Source: Stagnimonas sp.
GTDB lineage: Bacteria; Pseudomonadota; Gammaproteobacteria; Nevskiales; Nevskiaceae
DNA length: 64,000 bases
Direction: 5' to 3'
NCBI GenBank assembly: GCA_030696045.1
Contig: JAUYNO010000055.1
Location: forward strand, 46,175-110,174
The notes under the pieces were generated by a model. The model had not been told where the DNA came from, did not search any database, and was given only the letters and a program-made list of their open reading frames with translations. Both the position numbers and the translations under genes were made by a program. Shown in pieces: positions 1-64,000 of this stretch (within the stretch, counting starts at the first letter, position 1; each line of letters starts with the position of its first letter).

Positions 1-811
1 GGCCGGCGCCGGCACTGCCGAGGGCCAGGCCCAGCGCCTGCCAGCGCAGCACCTCGGCGACACTCAGGGGCGCGGCGAAGCCCAGGGCCTTGCCGTATTC
101 CGGAGCCAGGTTCACGAACAGCGCCGAGACGTACCAGATCGGCACCCCGACCAGGATGACCGCGACGAAGCGGCGGCGCAGCACCGCGTCCCCGAGCAGG
201 CGCCGCAGGCTGCCGGCATCGGCCCGGCCCGGCTGGAACAGGGCCGACTCGGTCAGCACCCGCAGCCGCAGCGCCAGCACCCCCAGACCCAGGCCGCCAC
301 CGATCAGGTAGGCCGTGCGCCAGTCCAGCCACTGCCCGACATAGGACGCGACCAGGGCGCCGACCAGGCCGAGGAAGGAGATCACCGTGGTGCCGTAGCC
401 GCGCGCGCGCTTGGGCAAGAGTTCGGCGATCAGCGTGATGCCGGCGCCCAGCTCGCCGGCCAGACCGATCCCGGCCAGCAGGCGCAGCAGGGCGTACTGC
501 TCGACGCTGGTGACGAAGGCATTGGCGATGTTGGCCAGAGAGTAGAGCGCGATGGTGGCGATCAGCGCGCGCCGGCGGCCATAGCGGTCCCCGACCCAGC
601 CCCAAAAGAAGCCGCCGATCAGCATGCCGGCCATCTGCAGGTTGAGCAGGGCCAGACCCCAGTCGGTGTTGGCCTGCCCCACCACCCCCAGTTCGCGCAG
701 CGAGGCGACCCGGACGACGCCGAAGATGACAATGTCGTAGAGATCGACGAAGTAGCCCAGCGCCGCCGCCACGACCGCCAGCAGCTGGGCCTTGCGCGTC
801 GTAGGGTTCAC
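1..811 (-). CDS. MFS transporter (N-terminal part; runs off the window start)
   Basis: Not in the ORF track; read by hand from GTG 811 (TTG 820 possible): VNPTTRKAQLLAVVAAALGYFVDLYDIVIFG...GGFFWGWVGDRYGRR...LAGIGLAGELG, i.e. MFS motif A (GDRYGRR) and a TM4-type motif. Confidence 0.88.
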   Translation of the reverse strand, partial: MNPTTRKAQLLAVVAAALGYFVDLYDIVIFGVVRVASLRELGVVGQANTDWGLALLNLQMAGMLIGGFFWGWVGDRYGRRRALIATIALYSLANIANAFVTSVEQYALLRLLAGIGLAGELGAGITLIAELLPKRARGYGTTVISFLGLVGALVASYVGQWLDWRTAYLIGGGLGLGVLALRLRVLTESALFQPGRADAGSLRRLLGDAVLRRRFVAVILVGVPIWYVSALFVNLAPEYGKALGFAAPLSVAEVLRWQALGLALGSAGAG

Positions 812-57988: not shown

Positions 57989-59611
57989 TCAATAGCCTAG
58001 CCGCACCAGCAGCTGCGCGGTGCTGGCATCGCCGGCTGCACCCTGGCCTTCCATCGCCTGCAGGGTGCGGCCAGCCAGCTGCTTGCCCAGCTCGACCCCC
58101 CACTGGTCAAAAGCGTTGAGGTTCCAGATCACGCTCAGCACGAAGGTGCGGTGCTCGTAGAGCGCCAACAGCGCCCCCAGGTGCCAGGCATCCAGGCGCG
58201 GCAGCAGCAAGGTGCTGGACGGCCGGTTGCCGTTGAACACCCGGTGCGGGATCGCGGCTTCCAGCGCTGCGCCCTGCAGGCCGGCGGCAATCAGCTCGGC
58301 GCGGACCTCGGCCGCGTCCTTGCCCTGCATCATCGCCGCCGACTGCGCCAAGCCGTTGGCGAGCAGGAGTTGGTTCAGCCGTGGGTAGGGGTGATCCGCT
58401 TCGCGGACCAGGATGAAGTCCACCGGGTGCACGCCGCTGCCCTGGTGCAGCATCTGGAAAAAGGCATGCTGGCTGTTGGTGCCGACATCGCCCCACAGCA
58501 CCGGCGTGGTGGCGTAGTCGACGCGGCAGCCGTCGCGATCCACGCCCTTGCCGTTGCTCTCCATCTCCAGCTGCTGGAGCCAGGGAACAAATTTCTCCAG
58601 GCGCTGCGCATAGGGCGCCATGACCTGATCGGCCAGCCCGAGGAAGTTGCGGTTCCAGACCCCGATCAGGCCGAGCAGCACCGGCAGGTTCTGGCCGAAC
58701 GGCGCGGTGCGGAAGTGCTCGTCGACCGCCTGCGCGCCGGCCAGTAGCTGGTCGAAGCGCGAGGGCCCCAGGTTCAGCATCAGCGACAGGCCCACCGCGC
58801 CCCACAGCGAGTAGCGGCCTCCGACCCAGTCCCAGAAGCCGAACATGTTGTCGAGCGAGATCCCGAACTTCTGGACCTCGGCGGCATTGGTGGACACCGC
58901 CACGAAATGCTTGGGTACGGCCGCCTCGCCCAGGGTCGCGCGCAGCCAGTCGCGCGCGGCGCAGGCGTTGGCCATGGTCTCCTGCGTCGTGAAGGTCTTG
59001 CTGGTGACCACGAACAGCGTTGATTCGGGCCGCAGGCGCGGCAGCTCGGCATGCAGCTGGGCACCGTCGACATTGGCGACGAAATGGGCGCGCGGCCCGT
59101 CTGCGAGCGGCGCCAGCGCCTTGCCGACCATGCGCGGTCCGAGATCGCTGCCACCGATGCCGATGTTGACCACGTCGGTGATGCGCTCGCCGCTGGCACC
59201 GCGCCATTCGCCGCTACGCACCGCCTCGGCAAAGGCGCGCATGCGATCCCGCACTTCGCAAACCGCCGGCACGACATTGCGCCCGGCGACCTGCATGGTC
59301 GCCTCCGGCGGCGCGCGCAGCGCCATGTGATAGGCGGCGCGATGCTCGGTGTGGTTGACCGCCTCGCCGGCGAACAGCCGGCCGATCCAGCCGGCCAGGC
59401 CCTGCTGCTCGGCCAGCGCGACCAGCAAGTCGAGGGTTTCGCCGGTCAGCCGCTGCTTGGAATAGTCGAGGAACAGGCCCTGGAATTCCGCCGACAGCCG
59501 CTGCGCGCGTCCGCCATCGCCAGCGAACAGCTGGCTCAGCGTCTGGGGCTCAAGGCTTGCGGCGTGTGCTTGCAGCGCTCGCCAGGCGGCGCTGTGGGTG
59601 AGTACGGACAT
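57989..59611 (-). CDS. pgi: Glucose-6-phosphate isomerase
   Basis: GIGGSDLG, SKTFTTQET, DWVGGRYS, QQLEMESNGK, FDQWGVELGK. Confidence 0.98.
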   Translation of the reverse strand: MSVLTHSAAWRALQAHAASLEPQTLSQLFAGDGGRAQRLSAEFQGLFLDYSKQRLTGETLDLLVALAEQQGLAGWIGRLFAGEAVNHTEHRAAYHMALRAPPEATMQVAGRNVVPAVCEVRDRMRAFAEAVRSGEWRGASGERITDVVNIGIGGSDLGPRMVGKALAPLADGPRAHFVANVDGAQLHAELPRLRPESTLFVVTSKTFTTQETMANACAARDWLRATLGEAAVPKHFVAVSTNAAEVQKFGISLDNMFGFWDWVGGRYSLWGAVGLSLMLNLGPSRFDQLLAGAQAVDEHFRTAPFGQNLPVLLGLIGVWNRNFLGLADQVMAPYAQRLEKFVPWLQQLEMESNGKGVDRDGCRVDYATTPVLWGDVGTNSQHAFFQMLHQGSGVHPVDFILVREADHPYPRLNQLLLANGLAQSAAMMQGKDAAEVRAELIAAGLQGAALEAAIPHRVFNGNRPSSTLLLPRLDAWHLGALLALYEHRTFVLSVIWNLNAFDQWGVELGKQLAGRTLQAMEGQGAAGDASTAQLLVRLGY

Positions 59612-59671
59612 CCGGGGACCGATGATTCTGATGTAGCCGGAGCTTACGCGAGGCGATTCCCGGACCGGAAG

Positions 59672-60298
59672 TCACAGGATCCAGTGATAGTTGAAACTGA
59701 CGCTCACTCGTTCGGCGCTGACCGGGCTGGCGGGCACCTCGTGGCGCAGCCAACTCTCGAAAAGAATTACCTGACCGGCCTGCGCCGGGTAGCTGATGTG
59801 CGGCTGCTGCGCCGGATCGGCCTCGGGCTGGCGCATCGGCGCCGCCATCAGGCGCGACAGCCGCGGGTCTTCGAACTTCAGACCCGAGCAGCCGCGTGGC
59901 GTCTTCACGTAGTAGCTGCCGCTGATCACCGCCTGCGGATGCAGATGAAAGCTATGCGCGCAGCCCTTGGGCATGACATTGACCCAGCAGTCGGTCATCG
60001 CCAGCCGGCCGCCGCGCAGATCCCAGGCCAGCGCCTTGGCGTAGCGACGCACCTGGGTGTCGATGCGCTTCTCGAGGTCCATGAAGCTGGACGAAAACTG
60101 GTGCAGGCGGTCCATCGAGCCGTAGCTGGTATAGCCGCCGGGGTAGCTCTTGGCCGACCACTGGCGCCCGGCGCGGTCGTAGTCGCGCAGCTGGCCGATC
60201 TCGCGCAGCAACTCGGCGTTGTAGCGCGTCGCGGCCGCCCCGCGCAGCAGCGGCGCGTGGTGAATCAGGGTCGGGAACCAGCTCTTGGTATTGGCCAT
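59672..60298 (-). CDS. TIGR02466-family putative 2OG-Fe(II) oxygenase
   Basis: ATG 60298; YPGGYTSY, CWVNVM, HSFHLHPQAVISGSYYV, FESWLRHEV, RVSVSFN. Confidence 0.82.
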   Translation of the reverse strand: MANTKSWFPTLIHHAPLLRGAAATRYNAELLREIGQLRDYDRAGRQWSAKSYPGGYTSYGSMDRLHQFSSSFMDLEKRIDTQVRRYAKALAWDLRGGRLAMTDCWVNVMPKGCAHSFHLHPQAVISGSYYVKTPRGCSGLKFEDPRLSRLMAAPMRQPEADPAQQPHISYPAQAGQVILFESWLRHEVPASPVSAERVSVSFNYHWIL

Positions 60299-60307
60299 GG
60301 CAGAGGC

Positions 60308-60339
60308 AAAAAAGAAAACGCCCGCTGGGAAGCGGGCGT
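60308..60339 (-). terminator. Rho-independent terminator after panD
   Basis: ACGCCCGCT-GGGA-AGCGGGCGT stem with TTTCTTTTTT on the minus strand. Confidence 0.8.
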
Positions 60340-60359
60340 GGTCAGGGTGAACAGAGAAA

Positions 60360-60743
60360 TTACGCGGCCATTTGGACCGGAATGGTATTGGCGGTGCGCT
60401 GCACGCCATTCTGGTCGGTGCAATAGACCAGGCGCGGCTTGTAGCTGCGGGCCTGCGCCTCGTCCATATCGGCGTAGATGGCGATGATCACCTTGTCGCC
60501 GACACGCGCCTTGTGGGCGGCAGCGCCATTGACCGAGATGATCCCCGAGCCTTCCTCGGCGCGGATGGCATAGGTGGTGAAACGCTCGCCGTTGGTGACG
60601 TTGTAAATCTGGATCTGCTCGAATTCGAGGATGTTGGCGAGATCGAGCAGCTTGCCGTCGATGGCGCAGGAACCGTCGTAGTCGAGTTCGGAGTGGGTGA
60701 CGCGGGCGCTGTGCAACTTGCACTTGAGCATGGTCAGACGCAT
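60360..60743 (-). CDS. panD: Aspartate 1-decarboxylase
   Basis: [18 protein letters not shown] (G-S cleavage site), [13 protein letters not shown]. Confidence 0.98.
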
Positions 60744-60773
60744 GGCTGGCTTCCTCTTGCCGGGGTCAGCGTT

Positions 60774-60847
60774 GGCGGCCCACTAAGACATGCGCCTTCG
60801 CTGTGTCGTTATTCAAGCAAGCGGGCGGCCCACTAAGGCATGCACCC
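60774..60847 (-). ncRNA. Candidate cis-regulatory RNA: two tandem identical-architecture hairpins in the panD leader
   Basis: 20-bp direct repeat (60774-60793, 60824-60843; 1 mismatch). Each copy folds as outer stem, CAU bulge, 3-bp stem and UUAGUG loop, and the differences preserve pairing. Confidence 0.45.
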
Positions 60848-60916
60848 GGTTCGCAGCGGTTTCGCCGCGATCAAAACCGTGACGCTTCCGTCACGAATTG
60901 GACATTAGTTTAGAAC

Positions 60917-60938
60917 AAATGTGATCCGGATCAAACCG
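60917..60938. promoter_or_regulatory. CRP/FNR-family binding site upstream of panD
   Basis: AAATGTGATCCGGATCAAACCG versus the CRP consensus AAATGTGATCTAGATCACATTT; lies in an AT-rich patch and overlaps a possible TTGATC-N16-TAAACT promoter on the minus strand. Confidence 0.55.
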
Positions 60939-60944
60939 CGCTCG

Positions 60945-61790
60945 TCAGCCCGCAGCGACCACCAGGTTGTCGATCAGACGGGTCGTACCGAGAAAGGCGG
61001 CCACCAGGACCACCCAATCGGTCGCCGACGCCGCCGGCTCCAGCAACTCCGCGCTACGAATGGCGACGTATTGCGGGCGGAAGCCGGCACGTTGCAGCGT
61101 CAACGCGGCTTCCGATTGCAGTACCTCGTAATCACGACGACCCGCTCGTAAGCCCTCGGCGATCCGGCTCAGGACCCGATGAACGGTCGTGGCGCGCGCC
61201 CGCTCCTCGGCGCTCAGGTACTGGTTGCGCGAGGACAGGGCCAGACCGTCCTCGGCGCGCAGGGTCGGCACCCCGACCACTTCGAGCGGCAGGCGCAGGT
61301 CGGCAACCATGCGGCGGATCACCGCCAGCTGCTGGTAGTCCTTCTGCCCGAACAACGCGACATCGGGCTGCACCAGGTTGAACAGGATATTGACCACGGT
61401 GGCCACGCCGTCGAAATGGCCAGGGCGGAATTCGCCTTCCAGCATTTCAGTGACGCCGGCCACCCGCACCGTAGTGGCGCCCACGCCTTGCGGATACACC
61501 TCCTCGACGCCGGGCGCGAACAGCAGGTCGCAGCCGGCCGTGATGAGTTGCGCGGCGTCCTGCGGCAGGCTGCGCGGATAGCGGCCGAAGTCCTCGTTGA
61601 CGCCGAACTGCAGCGGGTTCACGAACACGCTGGCGACGACACGCTGCGCCCGCTGACGGCCCTGGCGTACCAGCTCGATGTGGCCGGCGTGGAGGTTACC
61701 CATGGTCGGCACAAAGGCGATGCGCTCGCCCGCGGTCCGCCAGGCGGCCAGCTGCGCACGCAACTCGGCAACGGTATGGACAGTGCGCAT
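60945..61790 (-). CDS. panC: Pantoate-beta-alanine ligase
   Basis: FVPTMGNLHAGH, SVFVNPLQF, RPGHFDGV, FGQKDYQQ, GLALSSRN, RLIDN. Confidence 0.98.
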   Translation of the reverse strand: MRTVHTVAELRAQLAAWRTAGERIAFVPTMGNLHAGHIELVRQGRQRAQRVVASVFVNPLQFGVNEDFGRYPRSLPQDAAQLITAGCDLLFAPGVEEVYPQGVGATTVRVAGVTEMLEGEFRPGHFDGVATVVNILFNLVQPDVALFGQKDYQQLAVIRRMVADLRLPLEVVGVPTLRAEDGLALSSRNQYLSAEERARATTVHRVLSRIAEGLRAGRRDYEVLQSEAALTLQRAGFRPQYVAIRSAELLEPAASATDWVVLVAAFLGTTRLIDNLVVAAG

Positions 61791-62626
61791 CAGAAGCAGT
61801 GCTCGGGCGCCGGATAGCTGGCGGCTTTCACCGCCTTCACGTAGGCGGCGATGGCCGCCTCGATCACCCCGCCCTTCTCGCCAGCGGCCTGGGCGGTGGC
61901 CATGAAATTCTTCACGAAACGGGGCGTGCGCCCCAGGGTCACCTGGGGCGAGATGCCGAGGATGTCCTGCAGCACCAGGATCTGCCCGTCGACGGCGGCG
62001 CCGGCGCCGATGCCGATCACCGGCACCGGACTCTCTTTCGTGATCCGCTCACCGAGGGCAGCGGGGATGCACTCCAGCAACAGCAGGTCGGCACCGGCCT
62101 CGGCCAGCACCTTCGCGTCATGCAGCATGGACTCGGCGGCTGCGTCGTCGCGGCCCTGCACCTTGAAGGCGCCCATCTTGTGGATGAACTGCGGCTGCAG
62201 GCCCAGGTGGGCGCAGACCGGCACGCCACGCACCGAGAGATATTCGACGATGCTGGCCTGCTCACGGCCACCTTCCAGCTTCACCATCTTGGCGCCGCCC
62301 TGCTGCATCAGGCGCTGGCTGGCATCGAGCGCGCGGTCCAGGGTGGCGTAACTCAGGAACGGCAGGTCGGCGATCAGGAAGGCGCGCTTCAGGTGCGGCG
62401 CCACCGCCCTGGAGTGGTAGACGATGTCGTCCACCGTCACCGGCGTGGTGGTGTTGCCGCCGTGGATGACCATACCCAGGGAGTCGCCGATCAGCACCAC
62501 GTCGACACCGGCACGGTCTTCGAGCAGGGCGAAGCTGGCGTCGTAGGCGGTCAGGCAGGCGATCTTCTCGCCGGCCTCGCGCATCTTGCGCAGCTCGGCG
62601 AGGTGCAGCGGTTTCTGGGTTTCCAT
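61790..62626 (-). CDS. panB: 3-methyl-2-oxobutanoate hydroxymethyltransferase
   Basis: LTAYDASFA, IGDSLGM, DLPFLSY, VKLEGG, HLGLQPQ, GIGAG...DGQILV. Confidence 0.98.
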   Translation of the reverse strand: METQKPLHLAELRKMREAGEKIACLTAYDASFALLEDRAGVDVVLIGDSLGMVIHGGNTTTPVTVDDIVYHSRAVAPHLKRAFLIADLPFLSYATLDRALDASQRLMQQGGAKMVKLEGGREQASIVEYLSVRGVPVCAHLGLQPQFIHKMGAFKVQGRDDAAAESMLHDAKVLAEAGADLLLLECIPAALGERITKESPVPVIGIGAGAAVDGQILVLQDILGISPQVTLGRTPRFVKNFMATAQAAGEKGGVIEAAIAAYVKAVKAASYPAPEHCF

Positions 62627-62685
62627 GTGCAGGGACAGCCCGGGAATAGCGGGCGCGGACTATACCAAAGCCGTTTCGGCCGGCC

Positions 62686-63333
62686 TTACAACAGGTCAGC
62701 CCGGGGCAGTCGCAGATAGCCGCGCGGCTGGCGCAAGGCAGCCAGCAGCTCGGCGTAATGCGCGGGCTCGGCTACCAGGTCCATCTGCGAGACATCGACC
62801 TCGATCACCGGTGCCGCCGAATAGCTGCCGAAGTAGCGGGCATAGACCGCGCTGAGGTCTTCCAGATAGCGCCGCTCGATGCCGGCCTCGTAGTCGCGGC
62901 CACGGCGGGCGATGCGCTCCAGCAAGGTATCGACCGGGCCGGTCAGGTAGATGACCGCGTCCGGTGCCGGAACATCCCAGGCCAGCCGCCGGTACACCGA
63001 CTCGTAGAGCGCTAGGTCCGCCGGCGTCAGCGTCAGTTCGGCAAACAGCCGGTCCTTGTCGAACAGGAAGTCGGCGACCCAGCGCTGGTCGAACAGGTCG
63101 GGCTGTTGGAAGCTCTCGACCTGCCCCGCCCGCTGCAACAAAAAGCCCAGCTGCGCCGGCAAGGCCCCGTTGACCGGGTCGCGATAGAAGCGCGGCAGGA
63201 AGGGATTGTCCTCCGGCTTTTCCAGCAGCAGGCGAGCGCCGAGATCGGCCGCGAGCCGCCGTGCCAGGGTGGTCTTGCCCGCGCCGATCGGGCCTTCGAT
63301 CACCAGATAGGGCAGAGGCGGATTCAGGTCCAC
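62686..63333 (-). CDS. Deoxynucleoside kinase
   Basis: IEGPIGAGKTT, ENPFL-type NPFLPRFY, RIARRGRDYE; conserved position between folK and panB. Confidence 0.92.
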   Translation of the reverse strand: MDLNPPLPYLVIEGPIGAGKTTLARRLAADLGARLLLEKPEDNPFLPRFYRDPVNGALPAQLGFLLQRAGQVESFQQPDLFDQRWVADFLFDKDRLFAELTLTPADLALYESVYRRLAWDVPAPDAVIYLTGPVDTLLERIARRGRDYEAGIERRYLEDLSAVYARYFGSYSAAPVIEVDVSQMDLVAEPAHYAELLAALRQPRGYLRLPRADLL

Positions 63334-63803
63334 GGCCGTACTTCCCAGGGCGGCAGCGCCGCCAGCCGCTGTTCGATGGCGCCATGACCCGGCAGTTCCA
63401 GTCCGGGCGCGATCTCGGCCAGCGGCTGCAACACGAAGCGGCGATGGGCCAGTTCCGGATGCGGCAGTCTCAGTCGCGCGTTGTCGCAGACGAGGTCGCC
63501 GAGCAGCAGGAGATCAAGGTCCAGATGGCGCGCTCCCCAGTGCTCGCCACGCACCCGGCCCAGCTGGGTCTCGATCAACTGCAGCGCGTCCAGCAAGGCC
63601 ACCGGCGGCAGGCCGGTTTCCAGCGCCACGACCGCGTTGCAGTAGTCCGGCTGGCCGGCGGGCCCCAGGGGCGCGGTACGGTACAGGCGGGAGCGCCGCA
63701 GCAGCTGCGTTTGCGCCAGCTGCGCCAGGCGGGCGATAGCGTTTTCCAGCTGCGCGGCGGGGTCGCCGAGGTTGCCCCCCAGCGCGACGTAGGCTCTAGC
63801 CAT
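63324..63803 (-). CDS. folK: 2-amino-4-hydroxy-6-hydroxymethyldihydropteridine diphosphokinase
   Basis: ATG 63803; AYVALGGNLG, YCNAVV, WGARHLDLDLL, LPHPEL, RFVLQPL. Confidence 0.96.
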   Translation of the reverse strand: MARAYVALGGNLGDPAAQLENAIARLAQLAQTQLLRRSRLYRTAPLGPAGQPDYCNAVVALETGLPPVALLDALQLIETQLGRVRGEHWGARHLDLDLLLLGDLVCDNARLRLPHPELAHRRFVLQPLAEIAPGLELPGHGAIEQRLAALPPWEVRPWT

Positions 63804-64000
63804 CCGCCGGAGTGCCGGCACCGCCACGACGCCGGCCGCTGCGACGGCGGCGCTTCTTGGGCGCGCCCTCGGCGGTCGCCGACTCAGCAGCCAGGTCCTC
63901 GGCATCGTCCAGCGATTCGGGCAGGGTCGCCCCGGCCTGCGCGGCGGTCCACCAGCGCGCCAGCGCCGGGTCGGCATCGCCGGTCTCGGAACGCAGCACC
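63796..64000 (-). CDS. pcnB: Poly(A) polymerase I, C-terminal end (partial)
   Basis: LRSETG...LARWWTAAQ...PKKRRRRSGRRR basic tail; conserved position upstream of folK. Confidence 0.8.
   Translation of the reverse strand, partial: VLRSETGDADPALARWWTAAQAGATLPESLDDAEDLAAESATAEGAPKKRRRRSGRRRGGAGTPADG

Follow-up and report, generated by a model that had tools for sequence, protein, structure and literature searches.

To our knowledge, little is understood of how pantothenate (vitamin B5) synthesis is controlled through gene expression, and the pan motif is the only RNA candidate that has been described for it. In the thrS operator of Escherichia coli, two leader hairpins near the ribosome binding site, one for each subunit of the homodimeric enzyme, control translation; the hairpins mimic the anticodon arm of tRNA-Thr, and the bound enzyme acts as a repressor, in competition with the 30S subunit. 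Guanidine-II (mini-ykkC) consists of small, near-identical tandem hairpins that are joined by a variable linker directly upstream of the Shine-Dalgarno (SD) sequence, kiss through ACGR tetraloops, and act on translation, and NAD+-I (the nadA motif) comprises tandem bulged stem-loops in the leader of a coenzyme gene, with internal loops that bind the ADP moiety. ANTAR targets are two hexaloop hairpins with a conserved A1 and G4, the second of which overlaps a terminator. The pan motif itself is a hairpin with two conserved bulged A residues, mostly found in tandem, in the 5' leaders of panB, panC, and aspartate decarboxylase operons, and Weinberg et al. (2010) proposed that it is the binding site of a dimeric protein (PMC2864571). 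It has been reported from Chloroflexi, Firmicutes, and delta-Proteobacteria, a range that the first-pass annotation of the DNA studied here had also placed outside the gammaproteobacteria. The control that is known for the pantothenate/CoA pathway acts on its enzymes: in enterobacteria, PanD is the target of PanZ-CoA (PMC4410942), and CoA synthesis is subject to competitive enzyme inhibition (PMC10393543).

We describe here a pair of small RNA hairpins upstream of panD in a 64-kb stretch of DNA (the window), every gene of the region being carried on the minus strand, as are all features given below. Upstream of panD lie folK (63324-63977), a deoxynucleoside-kinase-like gene (Pfam dNK; 62686-63333), panB (61790-62626), and panC (60945-61790, its stop ending at 60945); downstream are an ORF resembling 2OG-oxygenases and pgi, and among these flanking genes we found no candidate for a regulator gene. 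The panD ORF (60360..60743, with its ATG at 60743-60741) encodes an aspartate 1-decarboxylase of 127 amino acids (Pfam Asp_decarbox, E 6.7e-46) and is followed by a strong intrinsic terminator (60318..60339) with a 9-bp GC stem and a U run, near which RNA contigs of relatives end. The longest ORF after panD (59672-60409) overlaps panD by 50 nt and covers the panD terminator; the true start of this 2OG-oxygenase-like ORF is probably the ATG at 60298 (MANTKSW...). Its product belongs to the 2OG-FeII_Oxy_5 family, and the gene is kept between panD and pgi in relatives (L104). The nearest relatives of this panD are in Stagnimonas and Nevskiaceae metagenome-assembled genomes (95% amino-acid identity), which places the window in the order Nevskiales (Gammaproteobacteria), and a groundwater metagenome (DNA run X1) contains the stretch in full.

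The panC-panD intergenic region measures 201 nt, in agreement with the gap of about 200 bp given by the first-pass annotation, and holds two similar hairpins. Hairpin A (60823..60847; GGGUG-CAU-GCCU-UAGU-GGGC-CGCCC, GGGUGCAUGCCUUAGUGGGCCGCCC) scores 44.2 bits and hairpin B (60774..60796; GGCG-CAU-GUCU-UAGU-GGGC-CGCC, GGCGCAUGUCUUAGUGGGCCGCC) 37.4 bits with covariance model R1. A repeat search recovered the pair as a direct repeat of 23 nt with 91% identity and a start-to-start spacing of 50 nt; the copies are 23-25 nt long, and hairpin B ends at 60774, 30 nt 5' of the panD ATG. The first-pass annotation had claimed tandem hairpins with this spacing and this distance from the ATG, which was borne out on the mRNA-sense sequence, and it was also accurate in stating that the differences between them (C-G to U-G in the inner stem and U-G to C-G in the outer stem) preserve pairing and that bulge and loop are the same. 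The linker from A to B (60797..60822) is variable, its sequence differing across genera. Neither a pattern search nor a covariance-model search found further copies of the motif in the window. The folding energy of the isolated hairpins did not separate them from shuffled sequence (z of -1.0 and -1.7), and hairpin B of the window, when folded alone, favors another register. The pair is considered more than chance because of the comparative data, namely the same tandem pair at the same position in 57 distinct panD leaders, and not because of thermodynamics.

These comparative data come from 80 panD loci taken from a genome collection. The first-pass annotation had made its reading depend on conservation of the repeats upstream of panD in relatives, and they are conserved in all Nevskiales sampled: the tandem pair was present in every Nevskiales-type panD locus retrieved, with the hairpins at about -97 and -48 from the ATG, and in none of the approximately 25 panD loci of Moraxellaceae and other gammaproteobacteria. 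The carriers are Stagnimonas, Solimonas, Nevskia, Hydrocarboniphaga, Panacagrimonas, Fontimonas, Sinimarinibacterium, and Algiphilus, together with metagenome-assembled genomes. Further, in 10 Nevskiales loci the panB leader, some 2 kb upstream, contains another tandem pair (e.g. L016). The distinct tandem elements number 70, of which 57 precede panD and 13 precede panB; in all pairs, the hairpins are spaced by 46-54 nt (mode 49-50), and in 56 of the 57 panD leaders a distance of 24-33 nt separates the 3' end of hairpin B from the panD ATG.

The element is also confined to pan genes. A covariance model from the leaders of relatives, as the first-pass annotation had proposed, was built and run on 472 kb that included the whole window, where it found only pan-linked copies, at 26-46 bits, with noise at no more than 18.8 bits; on 667 kb of metagenome loci it likewise found pan-linked copies only. 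Over about 1.1 Mb of related and metagenome loci, there were no copies with intact stems away from pan genes. A scan of metagenomes for the exact pattern returned 120 stretches, of which the 6 whose stems were intact and whose copies lay in tandem were without exception in leaders of panD or panB. The remaining matches, about 110 in number, were rejected as motif copies and attributed to chance, being single, without the 5' stem arm, and in coding sequence; the best-scoring of them lies within an NfeD-like gene (L096, 31.7 bits). We therefore give almost no credence to a chance duplication, or a dispersed repeat of the REP or MITE type without a link to panD, which has nothing in its favor beyond the existence of an intergenic direct repeat. 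Such repeats are dispersed genome-wide, whereas here the 64-kb window has two copies and the rest of the 70 distinct elements occur in pan leaders only.

Two loci stood out by their labels. L041, labeled Verrucomicrobiia, carries the Nevskiales motif, and L049, labeled Pedobacter, carries a leader of the Moraxellaceae type; the pan loci on both are gammaproteobacterial, and both are probably mis-binned contigs in those metagenome-assembled genomes. The Moraxellaceae-type panD loci (L048, L049, L051, L062, L066, L069, and L070) are without the motif and have another conserved leader about 150 nt upstream (GATTGCGGCACAATGGCCCGCCCGG...GTGTTACG...CACGAGCGGAGGTAA). This leader, which has a GC hairpin and a promoter of its own, may be an independent panD leader element.

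Comparison of the copies defined the fold. The consensus has an outer stem of 5 bp, a YAU bulge in the 5' strand, an inner stem GYCU/GGGC with the pairs G-C, U-G (or C-G), C-G, and U-G, and a UNNU loop, and both hairpins were recovered by RNAalifold from 53 leaders. For 81 distinct hairpins of 27 nt, 94.9% of cells are paired in the proposed fold, and the covariation score of this fold lies above those of all 500 shuffles and all slid controls. Outer-stem pair 5-23 is C-G in 37, U-A in 24, and U-G in 20 of these hairpins and is never unpaired; pairs 3-25 and 2-26 also flip, the changes being from G-C to C-G and from G-C to A-U. Across the order, 11 of the 27 positions do not vary, and a further 5 reach 90% conservation or more, unpaired bulge nucleotides included. 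In 140 hairpins, the bulge is CAU in 67, UAU in 63, and UCU in 6. The middle positions of the loop are free (UAGU, UGGU, UUUU, UAUU, UUGU, and similar), and a reading of AUG-UCU-UAG inside the hairpin as a tiny coding ORF was rejected on the ground that the loop positions forming the stop codon vary. YAUG, the conserved tetranucleotide, is complementary to itself and matches the context of a C-AUG start as well.

The two hairpins are not equivalent. Hairpin A favors C-G at the variable pair together with a UAU bulge (48 of 70), and hairpin B favors a CAU bulge (48 of 70), with U-A as its commonest variable pair (30 of 70). The outer stem of hairpin B is often longer, extending to as many as 11 contiguous pairs or to 3+4 pairs interrupted by a bulged pyrimidine, in a sequence that differs from clade to clade. 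The loop dinucleotide is the same in A and B of one leader in 31 of 70 cases, compared with 16 expected, a possible sign of concerted evolution or co-selection.

The same pairs bear on the nucleic acid that is recognized. If the repeats were DNA operators for a transcription factor acting on panD and panB transcription, one could point to direct repeats about five helical turns apart that form partial dyads near a promoter, but the dyad is imperfect as DNA, with two invariant T-G positions in the inner stem, and the antisense strand does not take up the fold. U-G pairs, the reciprocal C-A of which never occurs at the variable position (20 and 0, respectively), work in the mRNA sense only, which argues for an RNA and not a DNA operator. 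In addition, the sites lie at +25 to +130 past the predicted transcription start. We consider the DNA reading very improbable.

The start position follows from a panD promoter, seen in the sequence and in the alignment of upstream regions, with a -35 hexamer TTGATC (60929..60934) and, after a 16-nt spacer, a -10 hexamer TAAACT (60907..60912; conserved as TACACT/TAAACT/TAGACT). From these, transcription is predicted to begin near 60900, giving a leader of about 155 nt. A sigma-70-type promoter (TTGNNN-15..18-TANN[ACT]T) is present in 67 of the 70 distinct leaders, compared with 3.8% of shuffles, and the distance from the end of its -10 box to hairpin A is 28-61 nt (mode 31-39). In soil and river metatranscriptomes (X20, X23, X24, X26, and X27) containing relatives that are about 90-96% identical, RNA contigs of 540-553 nt (X23, X24, X26, and X27) and 349 nt (X20) span panD and its leader, with ends corresponding to about 60879-60906, near the predicted start; this transcript evidence consists of assembled contigs of relatives and not of mapped 5' ends. 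The RNA depth in these relatives is 0-8 over panC and 16-50 over panD and the leader. The data agree with a monocistronic panD transcript that begins at the predicted promoter and holds both hairpins. The first-pass annotation had recognized that a position upstream of the transcription start would speak against an RNA element, and the hairpins proved to lie downstream of the conserved promoter and within the leader-spanning RNA contigs. One contig in X27 (514 nt, depth 50.7) joins 60707 in panD to 60820 next to hairpin A, dropping 112 nt in which hairpin B, the ribosome binding site, and the initial 36 nt of the panD coding region are contained; this join is possibly an assembly artifact, a case of the relative's hairpin B aligned onto A, or a real variant.

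Between the predicted start and hairpin A, relatives have a 5'-terminal hairpin (P0) of genus-variable sequence. In the window, P0a (60877..60896; CGUGACGGAAGCGUCACG followed by UUUUGAU) is terminator-like (-11.8 kcal/mol, z -4.9); it is probably a 5' stabilizing stem of the panD mRNA and possibly also a terminator for panC or panBC read-through. A second small hairpin, P0b (60853..60868; GCGGCGAAACCGCUGC; -8.6 kcal/mol, z -3.3), occurs in the closest relatives only. A GTGAY-N6-RTCAC palindrome 5' of hairpin A was evaluated as a DNA site of the CRP/Clp type and rejected; we read it as a 5'-terminal RNA stem because it lies downstream of the -10 box and is replaced by an unrelated hairpin in other genera. 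Another perfect palindrome, of 12 bp (TGATCCGGATCA, 60920-60931), overlaps the -35 box and is probably not an operator, since it is unconserved in the closest relative L002 (TGAACGAAGTCA).

We next consider how the hairpins relate to initiation of translation. The panD SD sequence AGAGGAA (60751..60757) lies 7 nt 5' of the ATG. Hairpin A of Solimonas, Fontimonas, Sinimarinibacterium, and others has a 5' half (GGCGUAUGUCUU) with perfect complementarity to AGAGGACAUACGCC, which extends from the SD through position -1, giving a duplex of 12-13 bp with -21 kcal/mol and a z of about -5; in the Nevskia clade, the complementarity between hairpin A and the initiation region is weaker, at -13 to -16 kcal/mol. 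For the window and a few other leaders, the pairing across the start codon is made by hairpin B, not A: GGCGCAUG (60796-60789) pairs with CAUGCGUC (60744-60737) in a duplex of -15.4 kcal/mol (z -2.1), and in the ensemble of the window 9.98 nt of the initiation region are paired to hairpin B, compared with 0.71 when the region is shuffled. Overall, complementarity between half a hairpin and the ribosome binding site is strong in about a fifth of the leaders, moderate in another third, and weak in several clades; for the 5' half of hairpin A and the initiation region, strong cases number about 12 of 56. When 58 leaders were folded, a mean of 5.06 nt of the initiation region paired to hairpin A, compared with 1.44 after shuffling. 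Neither these folding statistics nor those given next take phylogeny into account, and they describe a clade-dependent effect.

Because in many leaders the 5' half of one hairpin (A in most genera, B in the window) is complementary to the SD/start region, formation of that hairpin and sequestration of the ribosome binding site would be mutually exclusive. At equilibrium, hairpin A is predicted to be mostly open (median probability 0.06) and hairpin B mostly closed (median 0.86); when both were forced to form, the unpaired probability of the initiation region rose from 0.37 to 0.52, a rise to be read in the light of the general tendency of any forced upstream structure to free downstream sequence. 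In the minimum-free-energy fold of the full leader of the window, both hairpins form, and the linker GCUUGCUUG pairs with the SD region CAAGAGGAAGC. No terminator was found between hairpin B and the ATG, and translation initiation or mRNA stability is therefore the natural level of control.

The leaders of panB show two further arrangements. In leaders of the Nevskia type (L029 340-440; L129, L132, L188, L028, and L036), the element lies about 25 nt before a short upstream ORF of 23-30 codons (MQPT..QYG...) with an SD, and the stop of this ORF overlaps the panB start (ATGA); this suggests that panB is translationally coupled to a regulated leader peptide. Other panB leaders have UUCCCCAUCG right after hairpin B, complementary to their SD GGGGAG.

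These observations also bear on the idea that the hairpins are constitutive structures that set mRNA half-life, processing, or ribosome standby with no regulatory input. Stable GC-rich hairpins in a long leader would fit this idea, and P0, which is conserved in structure only, sits just upstream; hairpins of that kind, however, drift as P0 does, whereas A and B keep their invariant positions down to the bulge, the same sequence has been recruited to a second pan leader, and the complementarity to the initiation region points to a switch. We regard purely structural hairpins as quite improbable.

Overall, we conclude that the hairpin pair is an RNA element that is conserved across the Nevskiales, specific to pan genes, and located in the 5' leaders of panD and panB. 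The explanation that we prefer, and to which we give an even chance, is a new factor-binding element for translational control of pan genes, working in many lineages as a switch between the hairpins and an anti-SD pairing. Each hairpin has a near-invariant surface, made up of the YAU bulge, the inner stem with its two U-G wobbles, and the flanking G-C pairs, beside a variable loop, and a trans-acting factor would recognize the two sites. The bound factor would stabilize the hairpins, leaving the ribosome binding site exposed and translation increased, and in its absence the leader would relax to the sequestered form. A dimeric or oligomeric protein would be a more likely factor than a metabolite; a dimeric protein, the kind of partner that Weinberg et al. 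proposed for the pan motif, is favored because of the small size and tandem layout of the hairpins, the invariant bulge/wobble surface, and the variable loop. Translation is favored as the controlled step for three reasons. First, the distance from hairpin B to the start is fixed. Second, the Nevskia-type panB element precedes an ORF that overlaps the panB ATG. Third, the other panB leaders have a segment complementary to the SD. Conserved hairpin sites at a fixed distance from the ribosome binding site, a feature of protein-binding translational operators, are found here. We infer, then, that a factor binds, that this factor is a protein, that translation initiation is controlled, and that the switch works in the direction given above. 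Speaking against this explanation, an ON switch triggered by a factor is unusual for a biosynthetic gene, complementarity to the ribosome binding site is not universal, and the minimum-free-energy fold of the window pairs the SD with the linker. As to the protein, one attractive guess, by analogy with ThrRS on thrS, is autoregulation by a pathway enzyme, for which PanC, a homodimer related to class I aminoacyl-tRNA synthetases, would be a candidate.

The features on which a protein could act might instead serve a small-molecule riboswitch, in which two mini-aptamers would sense a pathway metabolite and the ligand would stabilize the hairpins at the expense of a helix in which the ribosome binding site is sequestered; options for the ligand would be beta-alanine, pantoate, pantothenate, 4'-phosphopantetheine, CoA, or a shortage signal. 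The strict tie to pantothenate biosynthesis genes in two separate leaders, the invariance of bulge and wobble nucleotides that helix stability does not need, and an alternative structure with the SD/start region, predicted for part of the leaders, that resembles an expression platform are all compatible with this proposal, and guanidine-II offers a precedent for tandem mini-hairpins. On the other hand, a selective pocket would hardly fit into units of 25 nt whose loop varies and whose bulge has 3 nt, a ligand that turns expression ON clashes with end-product feedback, and a narrow taxonomic range is more typical of protein-dependent leaders. We therefore hold a riboswitch of this kind to be unlikely, and a natural riboswitch for a metabolite of the pantothenate/CoA pathway or a shortage signal, with a two-hairpin aptamer releasing a sequestered ribosome binding site, to be distinctly unlikely. 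A further point in its favor is that no CoA riboswitch is known, as noted by Breaker (2022) (PMC9971707).

Comparison with described families places the element apart from all of them. Rfam 15 gave no credible match to positions 58000-64000 of the window, or, with permissive filters and E<=10, to three leaders (60720-60960 of the window, L016 340-560, and L006 2330-2520); the scans returned only noise of 12-20 bits (Giardia snoRNA, ybhL leader, serC leader, and Twister-P5). The covariance model of the pan motif (RF01749) also had no match at E<=10 on three leaders, and of the two options left by the first-pass annotation, a pan-like or a new element, it is the second that holds. The element shares with the pan motif the tandem bulged hairpins and the location in leaders of pan genes (here 57 of panD and 13 of panB) but differs in having one 3-nt YAU bulge on the 5' side instead of two bulged A residues, other conserved sequence, and hosts in the Nevskiales (Gammaproteobacteria). 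We take the resemblance for analogy, or for a homology so remote that it escapes detection, and not for membership in that family.

With the thrS operator, the element has in common two similar leader hairpins just upstream of the ribosome binding site; in contrast to thrS, tRNA mimicry is not evident, the distance from hairpin B to the ATG is 24-33 nt, and the alternative pairing that is predicted points to activation and not repression. Tiny, near-identical tandem hairpins with a variable linker recall guanidine-II, but here the loops are UNNU and not ACGR, conservation resides in the bulge and inner stem, and there is no Rfam match. NAD+-I likewise has tandem, similar, bulged stem-loops in the leader of a coenzyme biosynthesis gene, although the nadA domains are about twice as large and the Rfam scan gave no sequence or model similarity. 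Unlike ANTAR targets, the hairpins have U at loop position 1, variable positions 3-4, and no terminator after hairpin B. The literature that we searched described no panD leader RNA in Gammaproteobacteria and no pantothenate or CoA riboswitch. The element is absent from Rfam and from this literature, and we regard it as a new family within a kind that is already known.

The element thus represents a second, independent case of tandem bulged hairpins recruited to the leaders of pan genes, now in the Gammaproteobacteria. Two leaders of one pathway carry it, and some of its hosts are in culture (Solimonas, Nevskia, Hydrocarboniphaga, and Fontimonas); the proposal is directly testable because compensatory-mutation designs and a predicted anti-SD switch are at hand. 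If the partner were a metabolite, the finding would bear on the long-noted lack of a CoA-related riboswitch (PMC9971707), and if the riboswitch reading were true, the element would be the first RNA sensor for this coenzyme pathway. If the partner were a pathway enzyme or a metabolite, the element would reveal how these bacteria sense the demand for vitamin B5 and CoA.
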